Positions 4,482-45,434 of a DNA stretch of 64,000 nt are shown one piece after another. The notes under the pieces are model-generated. The model was not told the origin of the DNA. It saw nothing but the letters and a program-made list of their open reading frames with translations, and made no database searches. The stretch is from Elusimicrobia bacterium GWA2_62_23. GTDB lineage: Bacteria; Elusimicrobiota; Elusimicrobia; Elusimicrobiales; UBA9959. Position 1 is the first letter of the stretch, and each line of letters starts with the position of its first letter. Made by a program: the position numbers and the translations under genes. The DNA is taken from positions 1,309-65,308 of the forward strand of contig MGTV01000029.1 of assembly GCA_001799635.1 (NCBI GenBank), written 5' to 3'.

Positions 4482-5775
4482 GGTCTTCGACAAGTCCTAC
4501 TCCATGCCCTACCTCATGGGGTATTTCCTCGCGGCCAACGCGGTGAAGGACCTGTGCGCCGTGGTGGACGGCGCCAACTGCGTGATGCAGAAAGTGGACC
4601 TGCTGGAAGGCAATCACGACCTGTTCTGTACCCTGCTCTCGCCGGACGGGCGGCACCGCGCCGTCTGCACCATGGTGAATCCTCTGAACCCGGACAAGAA
4701 CCCGGAGAAGAAGCTTTCCGCCCTGCTCAGGAGTCTGGCCGCCCACGGCGGTTACGGCGCGGTCACCGTTACCAGCCTGCCCTTCTGCCGCATGGCCGGC
4801 ATGGACTACGCCGGCATAGCCGGGGCCGTGCAGGGTAAAACCCCGGTGGCCGCCCTGCCGCCCATGCCACCGGAGGCGGACTGGCTGGATGGTTATGCCG
4901 ACACGCTCTATACGCTGGCCCGGTCCCTGCCGCTGGCCGGGAAGAAGGGGCGGCTCAAAGCGGCGGTAGTGGGCTACATGTTCGACCGCAATGAATTCGA
5001 CCACCTGGGCAATTTGAAGGAATTGAAGCGACTGCTGGGGCTGGCCGGGCTGGACCTGGTGTCGGTCTGGCCTTCCGGCGGCGGCTGCGCCGAACTTTCC
5101 CGCGCCGGCGAGGCCGGGCTGATAATTTCCCTGCCTTACGGCCGCAAGGCCGCCCGCACGCTGGCCGCGCGCACCGGGGCGAAACTGCTGGAGACCGGCC
5201 TGCCGCTGGGCCTTGGCGCCACATCGGCATGGCTAGCCGCCGCGCGCTCGGCGGCCGGCCTGAAAGGCCCCCTGCCCGCCGCCCTACACGCCGAGGAGGC
5301 CGCCGCGGCCGCCCTGCTGCGCCCCGCCCTGCGGCTGCTGCAGAACAGGAACATCGTTTTCTGCGGCGATCCCTGGCTTTACGGGGCGGTGGCCGCCTTC
5401 GCCGGCGAGCTCTGCTCGGAAGTCTCGGCCGCTTTTTTCAACTGCGCCCCCAGGCAGCTGGGGCCCGCGCCCAAGCCCGGAGCCCTGCTGTTCGCCCCGG
5501 CGCCCGACGACGCGGCCGCGGCGCTGCTGGCCCTGGGGCGCTACCGCCGCCCGGACCTGGCCGTGGCCGATTCTTTCGCCTGGCAGCAGGGGCTGACGGG
5601 GGGGGCGCCGCTGGCGGAGCTGGGGTTCCCTTCCTACGCCCGCCACTGCCTGGCCGACGAGCCTTTCCTCGGCTACGCCGGCGCCGCGCGCCTGGCCGCC
5701 CGCCTGGTGAACGCCCTGCAGGGCGGCCGCGGCTGCCCCCCCTTACAGGAAGGGCTTAAAAAAGGTAGAATATAG
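4459..5775 (+). CDS. Nitrogenase component-1-like protein (NifK/NifN/BchB-like partner)
   Basis: VVDGANC, LFCTLL, AVCTMV and SLPFCRMAGMDY motifs; KAAVVGYMF...LGNLKELKRLLGLAGLDLV resembles Oxidored_nitro family architecture. Overlaps the upstream gene by 23 nt. Confidence 0.65.
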   Translation: MKDTRPAKVFDKSYSMPYLMGYFLAANAVKDLCAVVDGANCVMQKVDLLEGNHDLFCTLLSPDGRHRAVCTMVNPLNPDKNPEKKLSALLRSLAAHGGYGAVTVTSLPFCRMAGMDYAGIAGAVQGKTPVAALPPMPPEADWLDGYADTLYTLARSLPLAGKKGRLKAAVVGYMFDRNEFDHLGNLKELKRLLGLAGLDLVSVWPSGGGCAELSRAGEAGLIISLPYGRKAARTLAARTGAKLLETGLPLGLGATSAWLAAARSAAGLKGPLPAALHAEEAAAAALLRPALRLLQNRNIVFCGDPWLYGAVAAFAGELCSEVSAAFFNCAPRQLGPAPKPGALLFAPAPDDAAAALLALGRYRRPDLAVADSFAWQQGLTGGAPLAELGFPSYARHCLADEPFLGYAGAARLAARLVNALQGGRGCPPLQEGLKKGRI

Positions 5776-22750: not shown

Positions 22751-23488
22751 ATGAAAAAAAAACGCCTGGACGTAGCCTGCGTGGAGCGGGGCCTTTTCGA
22801 AAGCCGTGAAAAGGCCCTGCGCGCCATCATGGCCGGGCTGGTCACCGTCAACGGCCGCGCGGCCGATAAGGCCGGGCAGGCCGTGCGCGAGGACGACGCC
22901 CTGGAGCTGGTAAAGAACGACTGCCCCTACGTGTCCCGCGGCGGCCTGAAGCTGAAGGGCGCGCTGGACGCTTTCAAGGTCTCGCCAGCCGGCAAGGTCT
23001 GCCTGGACGTGGGCGTGGCCACCGGCGGCTTCACGGACTGCTTCCTGCAGGCCGGGGCGCTTAAGGTCTACGCTGTGGACGTGGGCGAAGGCCAGATCCA
23101 CGAACGCATCAAGAACGATCCACGGGTGGCCTTCATGCCGCAGACCAACGCCAGGTTCCTCAAGCCGGAATTGTTCCCCGAGCGGCCGGAACTCTGCGCC
23201 ATCGACGTGTCTTTCATTTCCCTTAAAATGATTCTGGGCCCCGTATTTTCCTCCATGGCCTCCGGCGGCGAGGTGCTGGCGCTGGTAAAGCCGCAGTTCG
23301 AGCTGCAGGCCGCCGACCTGCGGCGCGGGATCGTGAAGGACGAGCCTACCCGCCTCGGCGTGATGGACGGGATGCGGCGCTTCCTTAAGGAAAGCCTGCC
23401 CGGCGTGAAAGAGCTGGGGCTGGCGGACTCGCCTATAAAAGGCGCGAAAGGCAACCTGGAATTCCTGTGGCACCTGAAAAAGAAATAA
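22751..23488 (+). CDS. tlyA: TlyA-family rRNA (cytidine-2'-O)-methyltransferase
   Basis: S4 domain RLDVACVERGLFESREKA; YVSRGGLKLKGALDAF; LDVGVATGGFTDCFLQ. Confidence 0.85.
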   Translation: MKKKRLDVACVERGLFESREKALRAIMAGLVTVNGRAADKAGQAVREDDALELVKNDCPYVSRGGLKLKGALDAFKVSPAGKVCLDVGVATGGFTDCFLQAGALKVYAVDVGEGQIHERIKNDPRVAFMPQTNARFLKPELFPERPELCAIDVSFISLKMILGPVFSSMASGGEVLALVKPQFELQAADLRRGIVKDEPTRLGVMDGMRRFLKESLPGVKELGLADSPIKGAKGNLEFLWHLKKK

Positions 23489-24630
23489 AAGCGGCCAGGC
23501 CCGGGCCCGCCTGCGTGGTCTGGGAACTTACCCTGGCCTGCAATCTGAAATGCCTGCACTGCGGCTCCACCGCCGGCGGCCGGCGTGACGCCGAGCTTTC
23601 CCCGGCCGAGGCTCTCGCCCTTTGCGAGGACCTGAAACGTTCCGGCGCGCGGGGCGTGGCGCTGATGGGCGGCGAGCCGCTGCTCCGGAAGGATTTTTTC
23701 GAAATAGCCGCCAGGGTGCGGGAGCTGGGCATGGAACTCTCGGTGATCACCAACGGCACCGTGCCGGGAGAAGAAGTTTTTGCGCGTCTGGCGGCGCTGG
23801 CGCCGCGGGCCGTGGCCGTGAGCCTGGACGCCGCCGACCCGGCCCTGCACGACAGGATACGCGGCGTGCCCGGGGCTTTCGCCAAGTCTTTTGCGTTCAT
23901 AGAACGCTGCCTGAAGGCTGGCCTGCCGGTCAGCGTCATTACCACCGTTCACAAGCTGAACCTTAAAGAACTGCCGGCCCTGCGCGACCTGCTGAAAGGG
24001 CGCGGCATAGCCTGGCAGGTGCAGACCGCCGGCGCCGAGGGCGGCCGTTTCTCCCGGGACCTGCTGCTGGACCGGGAGGAATTCTACTCGGTGGGGATGT
24101 TCGTGGAGGCCTGCCGGCGAACTTACGCGCCCGAGGTGCTGCCGGTGATAGGAGCGCATGACCTGGGCTACCATTCCCTGCTGCTTGACAATGTTTCGCT
24201 TTACGAAAAGTGGGAAGGCTGCCAGGCGGGCCTCTCGGTGGCCGGGATACGCAGCGACGGCGGGGTGATGGGCTGCCTGGCCATGAACGCCCCCGGGTTC
24301 GTGGAGGGGAACGTTCGTGAAAAAAGCTTCACGGAGATCTGGAACGCCGCCGGAGGTTTCGCCTATACCCGCTCTTTCACCGAGGACCAGGCCGGCCCGG
24401 AATGCGCGGGCTGCGAACACGCGCGTACCTGCGGCGGCGGCTGCAGCGAGATGTCGCTGATGAAGACCGGGCGCCTGCATAACGATCCTTATTGCTTCGC
24501 ACGGATAGAACGGGAACTCTTCCCGGAAGAGCTGCCGGGGCCGTTCGCGAGGGCCGCCCTTTCGGCCCGAGGCCGCGCCGCCGGGAAGTTGGCCAGGCTG
24601 GGCCGGTTCTTTTCCGGAAAACGCAGCTGA
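23467..24630 (+). CDS. Radical SAM enzyme with a full SPASM domain
   Basis: CNLKCLHC (CxxxCxxC); MGGEPLL. SPASM Cys pattern CQAGLSVAGIRSDGGVMGC ... CAGCEHARTCGGGC ... PYC. GTG start at 23467 overlaps tlyA; alternative GTG at 23514. Confidence 0.85.
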   Translation: MAPEKEIKAARPGPACVVWELTLACNLKCLHCGSTAGGRRDAELSPAEALALCEDLKRSGARGVALMGGEPLLRKDFFEIAARVRELGMELSVITNGTVPGEEVFARLAALAPRAVAVSLDAADPALHDRIRGVPGAFAKSFAFIERCLKAGLPVSVITTVHKLNLKELPALRDLLKGRGIAWQVQTAGAEGGRFSRDLLLDREEFYSVGMFVEACRRTYAPEVLPVIGAHDLGYHSLLLDNVSLYEKWEGCQAGLSVAGIRSDGGVMGCLAMNAPGFVEGNVREKSFTEIWNAAGGFAYTRSFTEDQAGPECAGCEHARTCGGGCSEMSLMKTGRLHNDPYCFARIERELFPEELPGPFARAALSARGRAAGKLARLGRFFSGKRS

Positions 24631-24649
24631 TTTTTCATAGAATATCCAC

Positions 24650-25489
24650 ATGCTGATAGTGGCGGGCTCTAAAGCGTACGATGAGGCCGACTGGCTGCTC
24701 TCCAACGGGGCGGCCGAGGTCTATTGCGGCGTGCCAGGCCTGCCCAACCACCGCGACGAGGACCAGTGCCTGAAGGACGACGGGGAGTTCGTGCGCATAG
24801 CGCGCATGGCCAAGGGCAAGGGGAAGCGGGCGCTGCTCGCCATCAACGAAGCCTGCTTCGAAGAGAACTACCCCGAAGTGGCCGCGCGGGTGAAGGCCAT
24901 CCTGAAGGCCTGCCGGGTGCCGGTCATCATCCGCGAACTGCCGCTGCTGCATTACCTGCGCAAGAGCGGCGTCAAAGCCGACTTCATCATAAGCAGCCTG
25001 TCGCTGGTCTTTAATTCCCGCGCGCTGGATTACTACAAGGACCTCGGCGTGAAGCGGGTGATATTGCCCTTCCACCTGATGCCCTACGAGGCGGGCCGGA
25101 TCATAGACAACCGCCTGGGGATGGAGACCGAGATCTTCTTCCACGCCGATTTCTGCTGCCCCAACATGGACCCGGCCTGCCGGCTCGACGGCTGGCTGAA
25201 GTCCTTCCAGGTTTGCCGCTTCCCGTACACCTGCGGCGGCGAGCCCTACCGCATGCCCGAGGCCAACGTGCCGCAGAAGCTGGACATGGTCTACGACGCT
25301 TTCCACGCCGGGATAAAGTACCTGAAGATCATCCGCGTCACCGATTTCGGCGACCAGCGGGAAGTGCTCAAAGAGGCCCGGGTGATGCTGGCCCTGCTGG
25401 AGAAAGGAGTTTCCCGGGAGGATTTTAGGAAGCTCGGCGAGAAACTGTATTTCTCCGTCTCGCGCCACGGCGCAAGGACCGGCCGATGA
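24650..25489 (+). CDS. UbiU-like peptidase-U32-family protein, paralog 1 (putative Fe-S subunit of an O2-independent hydroxylase)
   Basis: N-terminus resembles U32 (AGSKAYDEADWLLSNGAAEVYCG). Cys cluster FFHADFCCPNMDPACRL...CRFPYTC is a divergent form of the U32 signature. Clear paralog of 26190-27035. Confidence 0.55.
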   Translation: MLIVAGSKAYDEADWLLSNGAAEVYCGVPGLPNHRDEDQCLKDDGEFVRIARMAKGKGKRALLAINEACFEENYPEVAARVKAILKACRVPVIIRELPLLHYLRKSGVKADFIISSLSLVFNSRALDYYKDLGVKRVILPFHLMPYEAGRIIDNRLGMETEIFFHADFCCPNMDPACRLDGWLKSFQVCRFPYTCGGEPYRMPEANVPQKLDMVYDAFHAGIKYLKIIRVTDFGDQREVLKEARVMLALLEKGVSREDFRKLGEKLYFSVSRHGARTGR

Positions 25490-26193
25490 AAATCGAACGC
25501 GCCCTTCAACTGAGCGCTCCCGCCCTGCGGGCGGCCGCCCCCGGGGCCTTTAAGAAGGCCGGGCTACTTTATCTGGGCGACGAGTTCTGCCAGAACCTGG
25601 TGCCGTCCCCGGAAGATTTCGCCCTGGCGCTGGCGAAGTTCCCCGGCCGGGTGGCGCTGGTGACCCCGCTGTTGACGGACGCCGCTTTCGACAGCGTGGA
25701 GGAGATAATTAAGGCGCAGTCCTCGCCGCGCCGCCGCCTGGAGGTGGTGGTGAACGACCTGGGCCTGCTCCACACGCTCAAGACCCGTTACGCCCGGCGC
25801 GTGCTGGTCTCCCTGGGACGGGTGTTCGCGCACAGGGTGAAGGTGATGCCGCGCTCTTTCGCCGCCGGCTTCCTGAAGAAACACAACGTGAAGCGCGTGG
25901 AACTGGACGACCCGGCGCTGCTGCCGCGCTTCGAAGGCCTCGGCCTGAAAGTCTCTTTCCATACGCCTTTCCGCTACGTGTCCGTTACGCGGTTCTGTCC
26001 GTGGGAGCGGCACTGGCCCGCCGGCTGCGGCTACGCCTGCGAGGGGCGCGTAAAGGAATTGGAGCATCCCCGCCTGCCTGCGCCGCTGCTGCTCAAGGGC
26101 CAGGCCTACGGCCTGAAGACCGGCGCCCCGCCGCGCCACCCGGCCATAGACAGGCTGGTGCAGGAGCCGCTTCCCGCGGGGAGGCGCAAGTGA
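25486..26193 (+). CDS. UbiV-like peptidase-U32-family protein, paralog 1
   Basis: Cys at YLGDEFC (C35) and TRFCPWERHWPAGCGYAC (C171, C181, C185). The spacing mirrors the four Fe-S Cys of E. coli UbiV as I recall them. ATGA overlap with the upstream gene. Confidence 0.55.
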   Translation: MKIERALQLSAPALRAAAPGAFKKAGLLYLGDEFCQNLVPSPEDFALALAKFPGRVALVTPLLTDAAFDSVEEIIKAQSSPRRRLEVVVNDLGLLHTLKTRYARRVLVSLGRVFAHRVKVMPRSFAAGFLKKHNVKRVELDDPALLPRFEGLGLKVSFHTPFRYVSVTRFCPWERHWPAGCGYACEGRVKELEHPRLPAPLLLKGQAYGLKTGAPPRHPAIDRLVQEPLPAGRRK

Positions 26194-27035
26194 AGACCGT
26201 GGTGGGGGTGAAGACCTACGACGAGGCCGCCACTATGCTGCGCCTCGGGGCCGACGAACTTTACGGCGGACTCGCCGCGGTTCCCAATCACCGGTTGCCC
26301 GCCCAGTCTTTCCAGACCATGGACGAGATAAAGGCCGCCGTTAAACTGACCAGGAAGCTGGGGCGCCGTTTCTCGCTGCTGGTGAACCAGCCTTCCTTCG
26401 GGGCCAAGTCCCGTAAAACGCTGGCCGTGGCGCGGGAGCTGGACGAAGCGGGCCTTGGCGCCTGCATAGTGCGCGAAATACCCATGCTGGAAAGCCTCGC
26501 CGCCCTCGGCCTGAAGGCCCGGCTTACGGTCAGCAGTCTGGCGCTGTGTTTTAATCTGCCGGCCATGCGGCGCTATAAACAATTGGGAGCTTCGCGCGTG
26601 GTGCTGCCTTTCCAATTGCTCCCCGGTGAGGCGGCGCCGCTGATAAAGAACCGCTACGGCCTGGAGACCGAGGTCTTCTTTCACGCCGATTTCTGCTGCG
26701 CCAACATAGACCCCGCCTGCCGCCTCTGGAACCTGACGCACCGCGACCAGACCTGCCGCTTCTCCTACAAGGGCCCCGGCGGGCGCTGGCGCATGCCCGA
26801 GGCCAACGCCCGGGAGAAGATGCGGGCCGTGTACGGCTTCTACCACAGCGGGGCCCGGTACCTGAAGATCATCCGCATGAACGATTTCTCCGAGGAGCTG
26901 GAAGTCTTCAAATTCGCCCGGATCGTGGACAAGCTGCTCGCGAAAGGGCAGAGCGAAGAGGAATTCGCCCGGCTGGGGGAAAAACTTTATTTTACCGTGT
27001 CGCGGCACGCGAGGAGCGCATGGAAAAAGCGTTAG
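26190..27035 (+). CDS. UbiU-like peptidase-U32-family protein, paralog 2
   Basis: GTG start overlapping the upstream stop (GTGA). VFFHADFCCANIDPACRL...CRFSY; C-terminal half aligns residue-for-residue with 24650-25489 (RMPEAN, YLKIIR, LGEKLYF-VSRH). Confidence 0.55.
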   Translation: MKTVVGVKTYDEAATMLRLGADELYGGLAAVPNHRLPAQSFQTMDEIKAAVKLTRKLGRRFSLLVNQPSFGAKSRKTLAVARELDEAGLGACIVREIPMLESLAALGLKARLTVSSLALCFNLPAMRRYKQLGASRVVLPFQLLPGEAAPLIKNRYGLETEVFFHADFCCANIDPACRLWNLTHRDQTCRFSYKGPGGRWRMPEANAREKMRAVYGFYHSGARYLKIIRMNDFSEELEVFKFARIVDKLLAKGQSEEEFARLGEKLYFTVSRHARSAWKKR

Positions 27036-27706
27036 CCCTGGAAAACTGCTCGCCCGGGGCGCTGCGCAAGCTCCCCGCCGACTGCCGGGCGGTGGTCATA
27101 GGCTCCGAATTCTGTTCGGGGCTGCTGCCGTCGCCGGCCGAAGCCCGCGCGCTCCGGCGGAAGTCCCGGGGCCGGATAATACTGGCCACCACGCTGCTCA
27201 CCCAGGCCGCCCTGGAGAAAGTGAAGGAATTGATAAAAATAATTAATTCCGGCGGGCCGGCCGAGGTAGTGGCCAACGACCTGGGGCTGCTGGAAACGCT
27301 GCGCGCCGGCAGGAAGGCGCCGCCCGTAAGCTGCGGCCGCATCCTCGCGCACCGGGTAAAGATCATGCCGGAGGCTTATGCCAGGAACTTCCTGGCCCGC
27401 TACCGCGTCGCCGGGTTCGAGGTGGACGACGCCTCGATCATAAAGCGGCTGGCGCCTTACGGCCTGCCTTTCTCCTGGCATTACCCTTTCCGCTACGCCA
27501 CCGTCACCCGGTTCTGCCCCTGGGAGAACCGCTGGGCGGCCGGCTGCGCCCGCTCCTGCCTCGGGCGGGCCCGCAAATTGGTGAGCCCGCGGGTTCCCGG
27601 CCCGCTCTGGCTGCGCGGCTGCGCCTATTTCATACCCGGGCAGAAGCCGCGCCGGGACGCCGCCCGCAACGTCTATACGCCTCCGGCTGAAACGAATGAA
27701 GCTTAA
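27020..27706 (+). CDS. UbiV-like peptidase-U32-family protein, paralog 2
   Basis: VIGSEFC and TRFCPWENRWAAGCARSC. Paralog of 25486-26193. Overlaps both neighbours. Confidence 0.55.
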   Translation: MEKALALENCSPGALRKLPADCRAVVIGSEFCSGLLPSPAEARALRRKSRGRIILATTLLTQAALEKVKELIKIINSGGPAEVVANDLGLLETLRAGRKAPPVSCGRILAHRVKIMPEAYARNFLARYRVAGFEVDDASIIKRLAPYGLPFSWHYPFRYATVTRFCPWENRWAAGCARSCLGRARKLVSPRVPGPLWLRGCAYFIPGQKPRRDAARNVYTPPAETNEA

Positions 27707-28658
27707 CCTCGGCTGCGGGTATAACCGCCTGGAAGGCTGGCTCAACCTGGACGCCAGTCCCGCTTCCGCGGCGGACCGGACCATGCCGGCGCACGATCTG
27801 GATCTCCCCGCCGCTTCCGTTTCCGAGATCCGCGCCGTCCAGCTGGCGGAACACCTGGGTTTTTTCAAGGCCAAGTACTTTCTCTCGGAATGCTGGCGGG
27901 TGCTGGAGCCCGGCGGCAAACTGCTGCTGGAAACCCCGCACATAGAAAAGACCTTCGAGTTCTTCCTGGCCGGCGGCCACGCCGTAAAAGAAGCCGCCCT
28001 CGGCTGGGTTTACGGCTCCGAGACCCCTGGTATGGGGCATGTTTATTGTTTCCCCGCGCCGCTTCTGGAGGAACTGCTGTCCGAGGCCGGGTTCGAGGTG
28101 GAGCGGCGTGAGGAGTTCCTGTTCCAGCCGGCCCGCCCCGCCCTGCGGTTCCTGGTCGTGAAAAAGCAGGGGGAAAAGGCGGCGCTGAACGCGGCCCTGC
28201 GGCGCAAACTCCTGGACGACGGCGTGGCCATTTTCGGGGAAGAAGAAACTTCCGCCGGGCTGGAGCTGGCCGTGCGCAGGCTGGTGGCCGGCGGGGGTAA
28301 TTCCGCCTCTGAGCTGGAGCAGGCGCTGGTGAGCGCCCCGGCAGCGCTCGCTTATTTTTCGCTCGCCGAAGAGAACGAACACCGCCCGTCCAGGGAGGCC
28401 GCCGCCTGCGCCAGGCTCTGCGGCTGGGAGCTGCAGGGGCGCCAGGCCGCCGCCTATCTGGCCGGCCTGGAGTCCGGGCTGAGCGACCGGCAGGCTTTCG
28501 AGAAAGGCCTGGAGGCCGGCCGGGAACTGTTGGCCGCCGCCCTGGCCGGGCAGGCGCAGCCGCCGGGCCAGGGGCCGCAACCGGGCGCGCCCGCGGTTTT
28601 TACGCCGGGCGCCGCGGCCGGCTGGGCGTTCCGGCGGAAATTCAAGGCGCCGCGGTGA
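27696..28658 (+). CDS. Class I SAM-dependent methyltransferase (Methyltransf_11-like) with a ~170-aa helical C-terminal extension
   Basis: MKLNLGCGYNRLEGWLNLD, VLEPGGKLLLETP. Overlaps the upstream gene by 11 nt. Confidence 0.75.
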   Translation: MKLNLGCGYNRLEGWLNLDASPASAADRTMPAHDLDLPAASVSEIRAVQLAEHLGFFKAKYFLSECWRVLEPGGKLLLETPHIEKTFEFFLAGGHAVKEAALGWVYGSETPGMGHVYCFPAPLLEELLSEAGFEVERREEFLFQPARPALRFLVVKKQGEKAALNAALRRKLLDDGVAIFGEEETSAGLELAVRRLVAGGGNSASELEQALVSAPAALAYFSLAEENEHRPSREAAACARLCGWELQGRQAAAYLAGLESGLSDRQAFEKGLEAGRELLAAALAGQAQPPGQGPQPGAPAVFTPGAAAGWAFRRKFKAPR

Positions 28659-28704
28659 TTTGCCGGGGCGGGCGCAAATATTATAGGCTTTAGTTAAGGA
28701 AGGG

Positions 28705-28732
28705 GCGGACCAGGGGGTCCGCTCTTTGTTTT
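28705..28732 (+). terminator. Intrinsic terminator closing the radical-SAM/U32/methyltransferase operon
   Basis: GCGGACC-AGGG-GGTCCGC followed by TCTTTGTTTT. Confidence 0.75.
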
Positions 28733-28793
28733 ATACTGGAAAAATTTACCGGCTTTCGCCTAAGACGGCCGGACATCATAGGAGAAACTACAA

Positions 28794-28970
28794 ATGAAGA
28801 AAATAGCACTGTTCACTCTGCCCTTCGCCGCGCTGTTGCTGGCCGCCGCCTGCAAGAAACAGGAAGCCGCCCCGGCCGCCGAGCAGGTCGCCGGTACCGC
28901 CGTCGAGGCCGCCCCGACCGCCGCGCCGGCTGCCGCCCCGACCGCCGCCCCGGAAAAGAAAGGCAACTAA
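28794..28970 (+). CDS. Small Ala/Pro-rich putative lipoprotein (58 aa, below the ORF-track cutoff)
   Basis: MKKIALFTLPFAALLLAAAC lipobox-like signal. GGAGAA SD. Followed by a strong terminator. Confidence 0.4.
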   Translation: MKKIALFTLPFAALLLAAACKKQEAAPAAEQVAGTAVEAAPTAAPAAAPTAAPEKKGN

Positions 28971-28989: not shown

Positions 28990-29025
28990 GCCGGCGCCTC
29001 CCTCAAGGGGGCGCCGGCTTTTTTT
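28990..29025 (+). terminator. Intrinsic terminator
   Basis: GCCGGCGCC...GGCGCCGGC stem followed by TTTTTTT. Confidence 0.75.
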
Positions 29026-29085: not shown

Positions 29086-29382
29086 ATGAAAAAACTTTAC
29101 GAACTCGGGGCCAGGACCGGCCTGGACAAGGGCGACGTCAACCGCATCGCCAAGCTGGGCGTGCTGGGGCTGCTCGCCCTGGGCCTGGCCTCTCTGGCCG
29201 CCTGCTTCAAGGCGCAGAAAGCCGCCGAACCCGAAGCCGGGCCCCAGACGCTCCAGGACCTGGCCAATTCCGTGAACAGCAGCACCGGTCCCGTGAAGGA
29301 CGACTGCGGGCCTTATCCAGGGTATCCCTGCGGCACCCGCTACTACACCGTCAGCGTTTCCGATTTCCGGAGGTTGGCATGA
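29086..29382 (+). CDS. Hypothetical small membrane/lipoprotein-like protein
   Basis: Internal hydrophobic segment LGVLGLLALGLASLAAC. C-terminal CGPYPGYPCG motif. No family recognised. Confidence 0.4.
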   Translation: MKKLYELGARTGLDKGDVNRIAKLGVLGLLALGLASLAACFKAQKAAEPEAGPQTLQDLANSVNSSTGPVKDDCGPYPGYPCGTRYYTVSVSDFRRLA

Positions 29383-39981: not shown

Positions 39982-42900
39982 CTAGAACTGGAAGGTCAGC
40001 GTGCTGCCGGCCTGGTACGAGAGGTACTCTTCCTGCTTGAGATACTTGTGCCACAGGCGCTGCAGCCCGGCGTTGAAGGTCAGGCGCAGGTTCTTGGCGG
40101 CCTCGTAGTCGGCGCTGGAGTTCAGGGTGAAGAGCTTGGTGTTCTCCGCTATGGTTATGGGCGACGACTTGATGGCGTAGCTCAGCGTGGTGGTCCAGAC
40201 TATGCGGTTCGTGAAAATTATCGTCTGCTTCATGAATGGCAGCTTGAGGCCCTTTGGCAGCTGGAAGTCCGTCTTTATCAGCAGGCTGGGGGTGATGGTG
40301 CGGGTGTTCTGCGTCACCACGCCGAGCGCGGCCTTGGCCTTGTCGGAGACGTAGTCCGCCTTGGGGGTGAAGCGGAACTTGCCGTAATCAAAAGTGCCCT
40401 GCAGGGTGGCGTCGTCGTGGCGGGTGCTGCCGGTCAGGCGGTTCACGCGCAGGTCCCTCTTGTCGGTCAGGCGCAGGTTGTAGCTGGCGGCGGTGTCCAT
40501 CCAGTTGAGCAGTTTGAAGCGGAGGTCCATGCCGTACGTGTCCGAGGAGTCCAGGGAGATCTTCTTGGCCTCGTTGGTGTTGCGGGAGTACTTCAGGTTG
40601 ATGGTGGCGCCCTGGGCCCAGCGTCGGGCCCCGGTGAGCAGTTCCAACTGCGATAGCGACAGGATCATGTCCGGGAAGGTGCGGTTGACGCTCTTGGAGA
40701 TGGTGCCCGTCACTTCGGAGCGCTGAACCGAGTTGCTGTAATTGTTGGTCACCGACAGCGTCTTGAGCGCCGAGGCCCGGCCCGCGAAGGCGTAGCCCTC
40801 GAAGGGCTGCCAGCGCTGGGTGGAGCTCACGGTGTCGCGCATGGTTATGGAATTGCGCTGGGCCAGGCGGTTGGCCGGCTTCAGGGGGTCGCGGATCCAG
40901 AGCTTGTTGCGCGTGTTGTAGTCCTTCTCCACGTTCTGCCAGATGTCGCCGTCCTGGATCTGGTAGTTGGAGGACAGCACCAGCGAGCGCAGCAGGCGGT
41001 TGGAGGGCATCAGGTCGTTCATGCTGATGGTCAGGGCCACGCCGCCCTGCGCGGTGCGGTTCACGTTCTTGATCTGGCCGGCGGTGTAGACCTGCGAGCT
41101 CTGCGCCACGGTGACGGTGGTGGTGTTGAGGTTGTTGCTCTCCATGGTGGTCACGGAGTAGTTCACCGACGGGTTGAGCCAGCGGGCCAGCATGAAGTTG
41201 GAGTTGAAGTCCACCGTCTGCTGCATGGACTTGGGGTAGCGTTCCCGCGCGGTGGGGGCGGCCAGCGGCGAGCGCTCCTCCCGGGCGGTCTGCAGGGTAT
41301 AGCCCGGGTTGAAGGAGGACCCGTTCCAGGGGATGAAGGTGAGCCTGGCGCCGTACACGTCGGTGCGCTCGCTGGTGTCGTAGAGCCCGGAGAGGTTGAG
41401 CAGGCGGCTCTCGTCGTAGCGGACCCGGCTTAGTCCCAGGGAATAGTTGAGGTTCAGCGAGCGCGGCAGCACCGGCACCGCGCCCGGCACGGAGTAGGAC
41501 AGGTTGGCGGCGTAGAGGTCCCGGTCGTCCTTGCGGCTCAGCAGGTTGTAGTCGGTGATGCCCTTGGTGTAGTTCAGACCCAGCTTGGGCAGCGCCCCGA
41601 CGCTGAGCGTGCCGGCGGCCGTGCCGTCGAATTTCTTCACGCGGCCCTGCTGCAGCGAATTCACCAGGTTGTTGCCGCCGGTCACCAGGGCGTTGGGCGT
41701 TACGGTGATCTGGCGCGCCGCGGTGACGTTCACCGGGAAGAAGGCCAGGCGCGTGATGTTGAGGTAGCCCGTATTATGTTCGTTGTCCTGGTTAGCGATG
41801 GCGGTGACCGGCGTCTGGAAATTGCGGTCTACTAAACGGTGCTTGCCGCCGAAACTGAACCACCCGGGGATCTCGAAAGCGCCTTCCACCTTGCGGGCGT
41901 TGCCCACCCGGGTGAGCGGGTCCGCCACGTGCAGTTCGTTGAAATAGACGGCGCCGCTGTGGGGCTGGTCGTCCTTGGCGGCTATCCCGATGATGAACTG
42001 CGGCACCTGCTGCAGGCTGGGCGTGCCGGTGGAGGTCACTACCACGCCCGAAGTGCCGGAGGCCCAGCGGTCGGGTATCCCGTCTTCGGTTATGTCGGTC
42101 TGGTCGATGACCACCATCTTCCAGCCGGTGAAGTTAAGAGGGACCTCGGCCTTGAAGTAGCTGGCCTCGTCGCCGGCCTTCAGGTAGAAGCTGGCGTTGG
42201 CGTCCGCGGCGCCCTGGTTGTTCAGCAGGAAGCGCAGCTTGCCGTGCTGCGACACGTCTATGGCGCGGGTGAACTTGCGGTAGACGTAGGCGGTGGCCGT
42301 GGAAGAGACGTTGTCGTAGGTGACGGAGAGCGTCTGCTCCACCACGGTCGCGCCGTTGCTCTTTTCTTTCTGCTCCGAAACGGAACCGTAAAGGTCGTTA
42401 TAGACTATGGTAGCCTCGCCGCCGGCGTCGTAGATGGGGGTGTAGCCGGGGTTGTCCAGGTTGTTCACGGCGGTGGCCTGCATGGTGCCGGCCTGCGTGG
42501 CCGTGCCGGCGTTGACGGACCAGGTATTGCCCACGGCGGAGATGCGGGCGAACTTTAGGACGCCGGAGGCGGCGCCGCCGGGGGTCTGCTTCAGGGAGAT
42601 GCGCACCTGTTTCACGGCGTTCCATTTATAGGTGTCCGTGGAAGCTATGGCCAGCGGCATCACCAGGGTGTGCCAGCCGGCGAAGTCCACAGTATTCTTC
42701 AGGTTGCCGGAGTCGTTGTTGTCCGTGAATTTGGAGTTCTTCACGTAACCAAAGCTGTTCCCTGTTGAGTCACCGAAGTCCAGGCGTCCGTTCTTGTTGA
42801 GGTCTTCGGAGTCCAGGCGTCCGTTGTTCGCCCCGTAGCGGCGCGAGTTGACGGCGTTGGAGGGTGAGTAGAGCCAACCTATGTCCTCGGAACTTCCCAC

Positions 42901-45345
42901 CTGCGCGTCGCAGTTGAGGTCTTCGCTTTTGGGGGCGTTGTGAAGCACTAGTCCCGATGTGCAGACAAAGGTGTCGCCGCTGCGGCCGTCCGCGTCCTCG
43001 CTGATCTGTCCCAGGTGGATGTTTATCTGCGGACCCTCGTTCCCGGCGGCGGTGCTGTTCTGTCCGTAGACCACCAGTTCCAGCACGTTCTTCTGCGAGA
43101 AGTCCAGGCCGGTGGGGGACAGCGGGTAAACTATGGAGACTTCGGACGAGACGTTGAAGTCGTAGTTAACGCTCAATACCTGCTGGGAACCGTCCGAACT
43201 GGAGGCAGGGTTGATGTCGCGGGACTTCACGTTCTCGGTGTTCCAGTCCAGGGCCGTAGGGTCCGCGGGGGCGAGCGTGGGGTTGGCCGCTATGAACCAG
43301 TAGTTCCGGTCCATGGCCGCGGAATCCTCCTGTTTGGCGCCTTCCATGTTGTCTATCAGGGCCACGTCGTTGAGGTTGGGGTTCAACCGGCTCTGCGCTA
43401 CTTCTCCACCGATAGATGCCCGCAGGCCCAGCAGGTTCAGGCCTTTGAGCTGGGAGTCGCCTTCGTAGACCAGCATGCTGTTGGTGAGGTCCGTGATGTT
43501 CGGCACTGAATTGGACTTGATTCCTCCCTGGTAGAGCATGGTGGAACCCAGGGAGAAATGATCGCCGAAGTCGTAGGAGATGCGGCCTCCCACCATGGAC
43601 TGGTTGCCCACCCCGCCGAAGGGCGAAACTTCGTAGGAGATGTCTATCTTGGAATCCTGGCTGACGCGTTCCGGGTAGTAGAACGTGATGAAGCCGGAGT
43701 CGTAGTCTATGAAATATTCCTCGTTGCGGCCGAGCTTGCGGCCGTCCACGCGCACCACTTCCGACTGGAGCACTATGTTGGGCTCCAGCATGAAGGTCTT
43801 GAAGCGGTAGGAATATTCCACGCGGAAGACGCGTTTGGACACCGGGGCGGCCGAATATACCTGCTGGTCCGGGGTGGCGGGGGCCCCTTCCTCGCCGAAA
43901 GGCTCTTTCAGGTTGAAGATGCCCTGTTCGAAATCCACTTCGATATCGTCGGGATAGACCTGGCGTGGGCTCAGGGACGAACCGACGCTGTTGCGGTTGA
44001 GGTCCTGCACCTTAAGGGTGAAATTACCGGTGCCGTTGTCGCGCACGATATTGGTCTGGCCTATGGAATAGTAGGTCTTGAGCTCCCGGTTCCAGCAGGT
44101 CTCGGCGGCGGCCGTCAGCGTGTCGGAGGAGATCAGCGGGATGTCGCTGGGGCTCTTTATGATCTTGGGCAGCCCGCTGCCGCCGGTATTGAGCAACAGG
44201 GGGGCGGTGTTCTGGGCCAGCATGGAGCCGTCGGAGTTCTGGAAGTCTATTATGACCACGTCCTGCGGGTTCAGGGTGCGGCTGAACGTCACCATGCCCT
44301 TAATGTAGTCCATCACGTAGTCTATGCCGGGGCTCAGCAGCTGGAAGCGGCCCCGGTAGGTGACCGTGGACAGCGCCAGATCGTCGGCGGTGATGTCGAA
44401 GACCGTGACATTGTCCACCTGCGCCAGCGTCTGCTGGTCTATGTAGATGCGTTCGGTCCCGGACTTGATAGGCAGGCGGTTGCAGACCGTGGTATCGCAG
44501 CCGAAGGTGAGGTCGTAGTACTTGCGGCGCAGGTAGCTGACGTCCAGGATGTCCGTGCCCTGGAACTGGGTGTTGCCGGTGAACTGCTTGGTCTTGGTCT
44601 GGCCCTTGGTGCGCGAGCCCACGAAGGTGAACTTGAGGCGGTTGGTCTTGAGGTCGGCGCGGATACCGAACAGCTGCTTATTGTAGGAAACGAATTCGGT
44701 GGCCGGCAGCGAGAGGTCGATGTCGCCGAACGAAACGTTCTGCACCACTTCGTTGGGGTCGCCGGTATAGACCACCGAGATGTCCTGCTTGTCCACCTTG
44801 GTGTCGTCGTAGTCCACGTTGACGGTGATCTTCTGGCCCACCTTGCCCTGCATGCGCACCTGCATCTGCTGGGTGATCTCGAAGAGGCTGAGGCTGCGGG
44901 GGCGCGTGTTGGTGGTCTGTTCGTAAAGGTACTTCTTGCCGCTGTAGTTGAGGGCTATCACCTTGCGGCCCGTCACGGAGAGCGTGGTGCCGGATTCCTT
45001 GAACTCAACCTGCGGTTCCACCATGGTAGGCAGGTCGGTGGAGATCTCTATGGCCCTGGCGGGGGCCAGTTCGTCCTGGCGGAAGCGGCCGGTCTCCACC
45101 GCCTCGCGCACCGAGTTCCAGGCGTCCTCGCTGTAGGAGAAAGGCAGGTCGCCGGACATTTCGTCAAGGGTGGAGCCCGCGGGCTCGGCCTGTTCCTGGT
45201 CCACGGTCACGCGTGAAGGGTCGGGCCTGTCGAGCAGGAGGAAGCGGCCGCCCTCCGGCTTCGGCACGGCGAAGTCGGCGGCCGCCGCGCCGGGGGCGCA
45301 GGCCAGTACCGCTGTGAGGAAAAGTAGTTTCGCCGTCTCTTTCAC
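39982..45345 (-). CDS. Giant outer-membrane beta-barrel protein, SprA-like
   Basis: Signal peptide MKETAKLLFLTAVLACAPGAAAA if the GTG at 45345 is used (alternatives 45366, 45426). The block VVYTGDPNEVVQNVSFGDIDLSLP...QLFGIRADLKTNRLKFTFVGSRTKGQ resembles the conserved SprA N-terminal signature (from memory). Ends in ...STLTFQF. Confidence 0.55.
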   Translation of the reverse strand: MKETAKLLFLTAVLACAPGAAAADFAVPKPEGGRFLLLDRPDPSRVTVDQEQAEPAGSTLDEMSGDLPFSYSEDAWNSVREAVETGRFRQDELAPARAIEISTDLPTMVEPQVEFKESGTTLSVTGRKVIALNYSGKKYLYEQTTNTRPRSLSLFEITQQMQVRMQGKVGQKITVNVDYDDTKVDKQDISVVYTGDPNEVVQNVSFGDIDLSLPATEFVSYNKQLFGIRADLKTNRLKFTFVGSRTKGQTKTKQFTGNTQFQGTDILDVSYLRRKYYDLTFGCDTTVCNRLPIKSGTERIYIDQQTLAQVDNVTVFDITADDLALSTVTYRGRFQLLSPGIDYVMDYIKGMVTFSRTLNPQDVVIIDFQNSDGSMLAQNTAPLLLNTGGSGLPKIIKSPSDIPLISSDTLTAAAETCWNRELKTYYSIGQTNIVRDNGTGNFTLKVQDLNRNSVGSSLSPRQVYPDDIEVDFEQGIFNLKEPFGEEGAPATPDQQVYSAAPVSKRVFRVEYSYRFKTFMLEPNIVLQSEVVRVDGRKLGRNEEYFIDYDSGFITFYYPERVSQDSKIDISYEVSPFGGVGNQSMVGGRISYDFGDHFSLGSTMLYQGGIKSNSVPNITDLTNSMLVYEGDSQLKGLNLLGLRASIGGEVAQSRLNPNLNDVALIDNMEGAKQEDSAAMDRNYWFIAANPTLAPADPTALDWNTENVKSRDINPASSSDGSQQVLSVNYDFNVSSEVSIVYPLSPTGLDFSQKNVLELVVYGQNSTAAGNEGPQINIHLGQISEDADGRSGDTFVCTSGLVLHNAPKSEDLNCDAQVGSSEDIGWLYSPSNAVNSRRYGANNGRLDSEDLNKNGRLDFGDSTGNSFGYVKNSKFTDNNDSGNLKNTVDFAGWHTLVMPLAIASTDTYKWNAVKQVRISLKQTPGGAASGVLKFARISAVGNTWSVNAGTATQAGTMQATAVNNLDNPGYTPIYDAGGEATIVYNDLYGSVSEQKEKSNGATVVEQTLSVTYDNVSSTATAYVYRKFTRAIDVSQHGKLRFLLNNQGAADANASFYLKAGDEASYFKAEVPLNFTGWKMVVIDQTDITEDGIPDRWASGTSGVVVTSTGTPSLQQVPQFIIGIAAKDDQPHSGAVYFNELHVADPLTRVGNARKVEGAFEIPGWFSFGGKHRLVDRNFQTPVTAIANQDNEHNTGYLNITRLAFFPVNVTAARQITVTPNALVTGGNNLVNSLQQGRVKKFDGTAAGTLSVGALPKLGLNYTKGITDYNLLSRKDDRDLYAANLSYSVPGAVPVLPRSLNLNYSLGLSRVRYDESRLLNLSGLYDTSERTDVYGARLTFIPWNGSSFNPGYTLQTAREERSPLAAPTARERYPKSMQQTVDFNSNFMLARWLNPSVNYSVTTMESNNLNTTTVTVAQSSQVYTAGQIKNVNRTAQGGVALTISMNDLMPSNRLLRSLVLSSNYQIQDGDIWQNVEKDYNTRNKLWIRDPLKPANRLAQRNSITMRDTVSSTQRWQPFEGYAFAGRASALKTLSVTNNYSNSVQRSEVTGTISKSVNRTFPDMILSLSQLELLTGARRWAQGATINLKYSRNTNEAKKISLDSSDTYGMDLRFKLLNWMDTAASYNLRLTDKRDLRVNRLTGSTRHDDATLQGTFDYGKFRFTPKADYVSDKAKAALGVVTQNTRTITPSLLIKTDFQLPKGLKLPFMKQTIIFTNRIVWTTTLSYAIKSSPITIAENTKLFTLNSSADYEAAKNLRLTFNAGLQRLWHKYLKQEEYLSYQAGSTLTFQF

Positions 45346-45434
45346 TTTAAATAAATCAAGAACCACAGGCCTGCCGGTTTTCCCCGGGCAAGCGAGACCG
45401 CGGCCGCCGCGAAGTTTCCACGGCACCGTCGATA

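Follow-up and report, generated by a model that had tools for sequence, protein, structure and literature searches.

A radical-SAM operon of very probably mosaic architecture carries two pairs of U32-related proteins in a groundwater Elusimicrobium

A stretch of 64,000 nt from the uncultured groundwater Elusimicrobium GWA2_62_23 (contig MGTV01000029.1; 64% GC) was analyzed. The whole stretch is called the window below, and all coordinates are given in its numbering. On the + strand, six genes that overlap or nearly abut (23467 or 23515 to 28658), followed by a terminator, encode a radical S-adenosylmethionine (SAM) enzyme with a SPASM domain (rSAM), two tandem pairs of a large (L) and a small (S) subunit related to the U32 family, and a methyltransferase-like protein (MT). 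A first reading made from the sequence only had taken the six genes as one pathway. Comparison with related loci splits them, and we consider it very probable that the operon is a mosaic, built from two modules that can be separated and that the lineage of the window co-transcribes and couples in translation. Module 1 is the U32 cassette L1-S1-L2-S2, and module 2 is rSAM together with MT and p98, a lipoprotein-like protein encoded downstream; the adjacency of tlyA belongs to module 2. Our best overall explanation, to which we give a probability of roughly 50%, is such a mosaic of UbiU/V-like U32 pairs and a unit that modifies p98; in the reading we prefer, the U32 pairs may have been recruited into the maturation route for p98. 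A tightly coupled operon need not be a single pathway, and the U32 cassette and the rSAM-MT-p98 triad are each new in their own right. The genes of the two modules are:

23467 (or 23515)-24630, + strand: rSAM, radical-SAM/SPASM enzyme, 387 aa with the 23467 GTG as start codon and 371 aa with the 23515 GTG
24650-25489, + strand: L1, large U32-domain subunit (predicted Fe-S protein) of the first pair, 279 aa, PF01136, 19-nt gap after rSAM
25486-26193, + strand: S1, small partner subunit of the first pair, 235 aa, ATGA overlap with L1
26190-27035, + strand: L2, large U32-domain subunit of the second pair, 281 aa, GTG start, PF01136, GTGA overlap with S1
27020-27706, + strand: S2, small partner subunit of the second pair, 228 aa, 16-nt overlap with L2
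27696-28658, + strand: MT, methyltransferase-like protein, 320 aa, 11-nt overlap with S2
29086-29382, + strand: p98, lipoprotein-like protein of 98 aa, candidate substrate or partner of rSAM and MT

Distribution of the two modules

A search with a p98 alignment, in which the scan demanded the C-terminal motif of p98, gave 40 metagenome loci (L101-L140). About 20 of these (L105-L108, L111-L115, L120-L127, L131, L134 and L135) carry, in this order, tlyA, rSAM, MT, in part the small gene p58, and p98, and have no L or S genes. In these loci rSAM is directly followed by MT, and the envelope-protein genes p314 and/or p497 come after p98 where present. Among the p98 loci, L-S-L-S was found between rSAM and MT only in L116 and in loci like that of the window.

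The cassette was also found on its own. The window and its close relatives L017, L020, L097 and L098, with L1 proteins at least 78% identical, carry rSAM, MT and p98. In L018 and L019, L-S-L-S is kept and rSAM, MT and p98 are absent, the absences in L018 being clean at three separate positions. Since L018 and L019 belong to different sub-clades of the S tree, these losses appear to be independent. Further L-S-L-S blocks, at 60-70% identity, lie in unrelated contexts (L008, L011 and the P0018 contig), and where other L-S pairs have radical-SAM enzymes and methyltransferases as neighbors, these are not orthologous to the ones of the window (20-80 bits or no match). With rSAM and MT lacking U32 genes in about 20 loci and L-S-L-S alone in L018, L019, L008 and L011, the earlier view of the six genes as one conserved, co-occurring unit was not upheld.

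tlyA stands ahead of rSAM in many loci of the p98 type, with U32 genes present or not, and was not found near L-S pairs in any other L-S context among the loci examined. Because tlyA tracks the rSAM-MT-p98 unit and not the U32 genes, the idea of an RNA nucleoside as target, for which coupling to tlyA had been read as a hint, loses its sole basis. A pathway to a quinone-like cofactor had also been suggested; no quinone-pathway gene was found in the window, nor were shikimate genes or a second L/S locus, and this suggestion was not borne out either.

The large subunits L1 and L2

L1 and L2 are 46% identical (E = 7e-86) and S1 and S2 45% (E = 2e-58), both far beyond chance, so that the paralogy previously noticed between genes 2 and 4 and between genes 3 and 5 stands, as does the tandem duplication of a large-small pair. 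PF01136 is matched by L1 with 36.5 bits and by L2 with 42.6 bits (cut-off 22.4), over only profile positions ~7-111 of 233. An AlphaFold 2 (AF2) model of L1 is a triose-phosphate isomerase (TIM) barrel with a predicted local distance difference test (pLDDT) score of 82.7, and the U32 structure 5D88 is its top match by template-modeling (TM) score (TMq 0.56, TMt 0.62, E = 4.7e-6). The U32-family signal expected for the large subunits was thus recovered at both levels. A sequence search found no PDB match for the L family.

Both L1 and L2 have C169 and C170-x6-C177-x11-C189, in agreement with the C-x6-C...C spacing described before. Among close relatives, C170, C177 and C189 are invariant and C169 is at least 90% conserved. 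The Cys loop of L1 (residues 171-191) has a pLDDT below 50, as expected without cofactor. In a 106-sequence alignment of the L family, C170 shares a column with E. coli UbiU C169, and C177 one with UbiU C176, and both UbiU residues are ligands of its [4Fe-4S] cluster (PMC6747719, also for the ligands of UbiV). L1 and L2 reached 38.4 and 30.6 bits with the UbiU equivalog NF047963 (cut-off 440) and 24.6 and 27.9 bits with the TrhP equivalog PRK15452 (cut-off 534), and no C-terminal domain of the RlhA/TrhP type was found in them; with the UbiV equivalog NF047965, L1 reached 15.4 bits (cut-off 275). On these sequence comparisons, L1 and L2 are classified as true U32-domain proteins that are not orthologues of UbiU, TrhP or RlhA.

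The L1 homologue of one close relative (L098, 7001-7840), 79% identical, retains only one of the four cluster Cys, the changes being C170R, C177W and C189Y. It forms part of a single L-S pair between rSAM and MT, the S of which keeps all four Cys. The altered L may belong to a decaying cassette or may be a sequencing artefact.

The small subunits S1 and S2

No Pfam or NCBIfam family was matched by S1 or S2, and PF01136 gave no match at E <= 0.01 in S1, S2 or 71 family members. An exhaustive HMMER search assigned 613 representative clusters to the S family at E <= 1e-3. S1 contains C35 and C171-x9-C181-x3-C185, the spacing that had been read from the sequence, and S2 has the equivalents C32 and C166-x9-C176-x3-C180. 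C35, C171, C181 and C185 are invariant in alignments of 71 and 43 sequences, so that the Cys residues singled out earlier are conserved in relatives of both subunits. The motif C-xn-C-x9-C-x3-C parallels C-xn-C-x12-C-x3-C of UbiV.

Profile-profile comparison by hhalign matched the S family to an L/UbiU profile with 86% probability (E = 5.5e-6, 173 columns) and to E. coli UbiV with 54% probability, with S C35 aligned to UbiV C39. The AF2 model of S1 is TIM-barrel-like (pLDDT 93.6). The UbiV equivalog NF047965 was not matched by S1 or S2; all E. coli UbiV homologues among the 120 matches listed were at least 73% identical (nearly all at least 85%) and gave no useful UbiV profile. In phmmer, E. 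coli UbiV matched none of 100 S open reading frames (ORFs), Pseudomonadota loci included, and S as a simple UbiV orthologue was therefore rejected. The assignment of the small subunits to the U32 family holds as far as profile-profile match, modeled barrel and invariant Cys are concerned, and fails at the level of PF01136. From alignment and model, S is best described as a very divergent, remote U32-like TIM-barrel partner subunit and not as a UbiV orthologue.

S1 and S2 are sister clades in the S tree, which dates the L-S duplication before this Elusimicrobia group. According to the same tree, tandem L-S-L-S duplication arose more than once.

L-S pairs across phyla

One genome per species was scanned with a close S alignment, giving 80 genome loci with 100 S genes; neighboring genes were taken as stop-to-stop ORFs, clustered across loci and annotated by representatives. 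A same-strand L (U32) gene lies within 400 nt of 94 of the 100 S genes. These loci come from at least 12 phyla, including Elusimicrobiota, Omnitrophota, Planctomycetota, Verrucomicrobiota/Lentisphaerota, Nitrospirota, Thermodesulfobacteriota, Myxococcota, Acidobacteriota, Bacillota, Pseudomonadota and the DPANN archaea (Undin-, Alti- and Nanoarchaeota). Pairing of the UbiU/UbiV kind, which had been proposed for the window only, thus extends across the family. Radical-SAM or B12-radical-SAM genes were present within 5 kb in 45 of the 80 loci.

The UbiU/UbiV-like architecture of two subunits extends far beyond the ubiquinone system, and it usually occurs among radical-SAM enzymes, with an S subunit for which Pfam and NCBIfam hold no model. 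Like UbiU and UbiV (YhbU/YhbV of E. coli), L and S are two TIM-barrel proteins of U32 type, one larger than the other, encoded by adjacent genes in anaerobic settings. L shares the C-x6-C aligned with UbiU C169 and C176, and S shares one far-upstream Cys and a C-xn-C-x3-C triad (C39, C180, C193 and C197 in UbiV). However, L and S are shorter (279/235 aa versus 331/292 aa) and have no extra C-terminal domain, as had been stated before. The spacing is x9 in S versus x12 in UbiV, and CC-x6-C-x11-C in L versus C-x6-C-x16-C-x38-C in UbiU. Moreover, S lies outside PF01136, the L-S pair is tandemly duplicated, and neither a UbiT/SCP2 partner nor a ubiquinone pathway is found nearby. RlhA and TrhP, which are linked to prephenate-dependent, O2-independent hydroxylation of heteroaromatic rings, share the U32 domain and a conserved Cys motif with L; unlike L-S, each of them is one long chain that has additional C-terminal domains and lacks a small partner. 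To our knowledge, U32 'oxidases' are the only enzymes thought to take the hydroxyl oxygen from an organic donor (prephenate), and we know of only three substrates of such oxidases, namely a ubiquinone precursor, tRNA U34 and rRNA C2501.

A setting that resembles the qhp operons was found in 8-11 loci, which carry, in this order, QH-alpha domain IV, a QhpD-like radical-SAM enzyme (389 bits), QH-gamma (43 bits), one or more beta-propellers, S, L, an ABC exporter and a QhpE protease (152 bits). These loci are L066 (4725-14430), L050, L059, L063, L074, L080, L083 and L086, and in part L077, L079 and L082. In L066, the sole locus annotated in detail, no QhpG flavoprotein was found between the alpha-like gene and QhpE. 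QhpG is a flavin adenine dinucleotide (FAD) enzyme that carries out the O2-dependent dihydroxylation of a Trp of the gamma subunit with which cysteine tryptophylquinone formation starts (PMC7876137). In these operons of other phyla, S-L keeps company with QhpD (rSAM/SPASM), the gamma peptide, QhpE and QhpF. Judged by gene order, it seems to stand in for QhpG as a non-orthologous enzyme that does not depend on O2, and this order suggests that S-L does the task of QhpG, dihydroxylation of a peptidyl Trp after cross-linking by the radical-SAM enzyme. QhpG itself is an O2-using FAD monooxygenase without sequence relationship to S-L. In the literature, no paper was found that describes S-L in place of QhpG. 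The occurrence of S-L at the place of QhpG makes a peptide substrate plausible for the S-L family. Loci of the qhp type would then predict O2-independent biogenesis of tryptophylquinone, which bears on how anaerobes make a protein-derived quinone cofactor that otherwise requires oxygen. The window shares with qhp operons an rSAM/SPASM enzyme, U32 pairs and a small Cys/aromatic-rich protein, but has no orthologue of QH-gamma, QhpD, QhpE or QhpF. Two leads are worth following, S-L in the position of QhpG and the triad of rSAM, MT and p98.

A second setting is formed by clusters rich in radical-SAM genes, with a CrtI/HpnE-like amine oxidase, Tes/TrsS-like or SPASM radical-SAM enzymes, a DegT aminotransferase, an epimerase or short-chain dehydrogenase/reductase (SDR), a GT28-like protein, a deacetylase and several B12-radical-SAM enzymes. 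In L034, L042, L045 and L047 (metagenome-assembled genomes, MAGs, of Victivallales, Lentisphaerae and Verrucomicrobiota) the CrtI/HpnE-like amine oxidase, a Tes/TrsS-like radical-SAM enzyme, L and S are accompanied by a DegT aminotransferase gene in opposed orientation, and this gene set, which is compact and conserved, looks like a lipid- or sugar-modifying pathway. S-L lies directly 3' of a TP_methylase gene (tetrapyrrole/RsmI-type) in L013/L068 (7277-9478, Nitrospirota MAG) and L015 (7222-9754, unassigned metagenome contig), which hints at a further substrate class. The single L-S pair of L009/L010 (6666-9264), an outgroup to the clade of the window, lies directly 3' of a gene for a DUF362 protein with ferredoxin-type 4Fe-4S domains, which may be an electron-transfer partner. 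On the P0018 contig (ERZ1426827) two L-S-L-S blocks stand back to back, one of them preceded by a 64-aa ORF, an rSAM/SPASM gene and an asparagine-synthase-like gene, an arrangement resembling those for peptides made by ribosomes and modified after translation (RiPPs).

rSAM, MT and p98

The CNLKCLHC motif and the complete SPASM motif of seven Cys that had been recognized in the first gene were confirmed, and Pfam places both domains above cut-off (PF04055, E 1.7e-29, 103.6 bits versus 29.5; PF13186, E 1.7e-8, 35.1 bits versus 21.5). CNLKCLHC occupies residues 25-32, with the CxxxCxxC Cys at 25, 29 and 32, and the SPASM region contains C252, C270, C313-x2-C316-x5-C322-x3-C326 and C343. By sequence, rSAM is thus classed as a bona fide radical-SAM/SPASM enzyme. 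Its best NCBIfam matches are RiPP maturases (rad_SAM_trio, 201 bits versus a cut-off of 591.75; rSAM_nif11_3, 177 bits), followed by AhbD (156 bits versus 500) and NirJ (144 bits), with PqqE at 102 bits (versus 381). It reached the cut-off of no named NCBIfam rSAM/SPASM equivalog (rad_SAM_trio, nif11_3, AhbD, NirJ, PqqE, MftC and others). Since the closest solved structure is PqqE (E = 1e-22) and the top NCBIfam matches are RiPP maturases, rSAM was likened to peptide maturases. The window enzyme shares with PqqE and other rSAM/SPASM peptide maturases (e.g. the 'radical SAM trio' of TIGR03913) the full CX2CX5CX3C motif of the auxiliary cluster, and a small co-occurring protein with an aromatic/Cys motif, p98, would fit the precursor role of PqqA.

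In MT, the N-terminal ~140 aa, starting with 'MKLNLGCG' that includes the motif-I-like 'LNLGCG', resemble a class-I SAM methyltransferase, and the C-terminal half has no assignable family. The Pfam matches lie below threshold (PF08241, 20.3 bits versus 21.2; PF13489, 19 bits versus 27), and a PDB sequence search found no relative.

It had been stated that no precursor-peptide gene was evident. This does not agree with the position of p98, which is consistently found downstream of MT/rSAM in the p98 loci. Every p98 locus that is long enough shows MT upstream, and rSAM where the contig reaches that far. The p98-family proteins have ~100 aa and match no Pfam or NCBIfam family. They consist of a conserved N-terminus (MKK-YE-GAKTGL...), a hydrophobic segment that ends in a lipobox-like LAAC, a variable linker and a C-terminal [ND]CGPYPGYPCGTRYYTVS. 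The Cys/Tyr-rich tail CGPYPGYPCGTRYYTVS is invariant and is kept down to 35% overall identity. Because of the strict co-occurrence, p98 is the best candidate for a substrate or partner of rSAM and MT. Since the rSAM-MT unit travels with a small Cys/Tyr-rich lipoprotein, it may act on a protein and not on RNA or a quinone. We give p98 an even chance of being the target of rSAM and MT, and regard it as doubtful that it is also a target of the U32 pairs.

p58, encoded between MT and p98 in most but not all p98 loci, was considered as a precursor peptide and rejected, being a low-complexity Ala/Pro lipoprotein that is missing from some p98 loci and is kept in L018 without rSAM, MT and p98.

Proposed mechanism and alternative explanations

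By analogy with UbiU-UbiV, each L-S pair would be a heterodimeric Fe-S enzyme with one [4Fe-4S] cluster per subunit. It would place a hydroxyl group on an aromatic ring rich in electrons, with the oxygen probably coming from prephenate and not from O2, as proposed for UbiU-UbiV, TrhP and RlhA (PMC6747719, PMC10990095, PMC11574389). We consider such a hydroxylase-like role of UbiU/V type somewhat favored for the L-S pairs, and to this extent the UbiU/UbiV analogy of the sequence-only reading was largely right; its RNA and quinone readings have found little support. Module 2 would modify p98 before export, by a cross-link introduced by rSAM and by methylation. In the sub-lineage of the window, the two U32 pairs may have been recruited into the same route of p98 maturation, where they could hydroxylate the Tyr ring(s) of the p98 motif, and MT could then O-methylate the product.

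Several observations weigh against this overall explanation. Concerning the enzymes, direct in vitro hydroxylase activity has not been demonstrated for UbiU/V, TrhP or RlhA (PMC10990095, PMC11574389). The profile similarity of S to UbiV is weak (54%) and confined to the N-terminal half, the phmmer search with E. coli UbiV detected none of the S ORFs, and the Cys spacing of L agrees neither with CX6CX16CX38C of UbiU nor with CX6CX15CX3/4C of other U32 proteins. In rSAM, Pfam and NCBIfam detected neither a RiPP recognition element (RRE) nor a PqqD domain, and no N-terminal extension of RRE size is present; together with the unreached equivalog cut-offs, this sets it apart from the PqqE/PqqA type. 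Concerning p98, the invariance of its motif is partly by construction, because the locus scan demanded the motif, and the group that contains all p98 loci is fairly narrow. The motif is identical with or without the U32 cassette, so that nothing links the U32 pairs specifically to p98. Unlike a PqqA-type precursor, p98 has a signal sequence of lipoprotein type and belongs to a separate transcription unit past a terminator: its gene is found beyond two terminator-like hairpins and is translationally coupled to the envelope-protein genes p314 and GNA1162-like p497, not to the operon. Its resemblance to a Sec/lipoprotein substrate is uncommon among peptides that radical-SAM enzymes modify. Finally, L018 and L019 keep the cassette without p98, and the cassette must therefore have, or can have, another substrate.

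In the main rival, a real though minor possibility, the U32 cassette would work independently of rSAM, MT and p98. Its substrate would be aromatic or heteroaromatic but no peptide, such as a tetrapyrrole or a lipid-linked, sugar-linked or quinone-like metabolite, and the cassette would lie in the operon by chance or only for co-expression. Beside the persistence of L-S-L-S in L018 and L019 and the p98 motif that does not change with the cassette, this rival would agree with the closest other S clades in Elusimicrobia. These belong to 'type B' loci full of sugar- and lipid-type genes, coding for a DegT aminotransferase, an NAD-epimerase, an SDR, a GT28-like protein, a polysaccharide deacetylase, a CrtI/HpnE-like amine oxidase and B12-radical-SAM enzymes. 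Tes/TrsS-like radical-SAM enzymes likewise adjoin S-L in Victivallales and Verrucomicrobiota loci such as L034, and the known substrate of UbiU/V is a lipid. However, the cassette sits exactly between rSAM and MT, with a 19-nt spacer on one side and an 11-nt overlap on the other, and this arrangement is kept in at least five genomes at 78-93% identity, which is unlikely to be neutral; moreover, the window holds no gene for a small-molecule scaffold.

That all six genes form one anaerobic pathway to a quinone-like or aromatic cofactor, with a step by rSAM, two hydroxylation steps and methylation at O or C, as the sequence-only reading had it, appears improbable. The translational coupling of the six genes would fit, a hydroxylase followed by a methyltransferase mirrors UbiU/V followed by UbiG, and rSAM also resembles the tetrapyrrole-modifying AhbD and NirJ. 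Eighteen kb upstream of the operon, with housekeeping genes between, the window further encodes (1992-5775) a NifH-like domain fused to a NifD/K-like domain (Oxidored_nitro; 829 aa), followed by a second Oxidored_nitro gene (438 aa). These genes appear to correspond to a nitrogenase paralogue of groundwater Elusimicrobia, 'group VI', for which reduction of a tetrapyrrole and synthesis of a novel tetrapyrrole cofactor have been proposed (bioRxiv 10.1101/765248). Nevertheless, rSAM and MT without U32 genes are the commoner arrangement, U32 genes occur without rSAM and MT as well, the radical-SAM enzymes and methyltransferases near other L-S pairs are not orthologous, and no prenyltransferase, UbiX/D, Men or Mqn genes were found nearby.

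An RNA-modification system coupled to tlyA, with hydroxylation of an rRNA or tRNA base by the U32 pairs and its methylation by MT, is very improbable. The operon does adjoin, and possibly overlaps, tlyA, RlhA and TrhP are U32 proteins, and L1 and L2 match the TrhP model weakly (25-28 bits). But tlyA precedes rSAM in loci without U32 genes and is absent from all other L-S contexts, its position follows the housekeeping synteny xseA-xseB-tlyA, the overlap depends on an uncertain start codon, and L and S lack the RlhA/TrhP C-terminal domains and stay far below the TrhP cut-off of 534. A role as peptidases that, for example, process p98, as in the public annotations 'U32 family peptidase' and 'collagenase-like PrtC family protease', can hardly be entertained in view of the invariant Cys clusters aligned with the Fe-S ligands of UbiU, the obligate partner subunit, the anaerobic contexts rich in radical-SAM genes, and the current view that U32 proteins with Cys are for the most part Fe-S oxidases (PMC6747719, PMC11574389).

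The recruitment of the U32 pairs into p98 maturation could also be part of a broader picture, which is speculative and unlikely to hold in full. S-L would then be a large undescribed class of two-subunit U32 Fe-S enzymes and a general anaerobic route for hydroxylating aromatic side chains in ribosomal peptides and proteins. In qhp-like operons it would replace QhpG for the O2-free formation of cysteine tryptophylquinone, and in the window it would, together with rSAM and MT, turn the CGPYPGYPCGTRYYTVS tail into a cross-linked, hydroxylated or methoxylated (possibly quinone-type) cofactor displayed on the envelope.

Boundaries of the operon and neighboring genes

The features that flank the six genes, of which tlyA and p58 are given as context only, are:

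22751-23488, + strand: tlyA, rRNA 2'-O-methyltransferase, TIGR00478 with 217.5 bits versus a cut-off of 185.8, S4 and FtsJ domains
28700-28737 (hairpin 28700-28727), + strand: intrinsic-terminator-like hairpin with T-run at the operon end, 12-bp stem with 7 GC pairs, then GTTTTATACT
28794-28970, + strand: p58, small Ala/Pro-rich lipoprotein gene between MT and p98, signal peptide and lipobox
28990-29018: second terminator-like hairpin, between p58 and p98

The overlapping or near-abutting arrangement of the six same-strand genes was confirmed at all junctions downstream of the rSAM start, and the hairpin at the operon end lies within 5 nt of the position reported earlier (28705-28732). The 22-nt overlap between tlyA and rSAM exists only if the GTG at 23467 is the start codon; with the GTG at 23515, which the public gene calls use, there is a 26-nt gap. 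As the residues ahead of 'VVWELT' in rSAM are not conserved among relatives either, this junction is uncertain. Directly 5' of the operon, the housekeeping run rarA-xseA-xseB-tlyA lies on the + strand. Elsewhere in the window, an ORF with no Pfam match on record is very large, coding for ~1790-1814 aa on the - strand (39982-45426).

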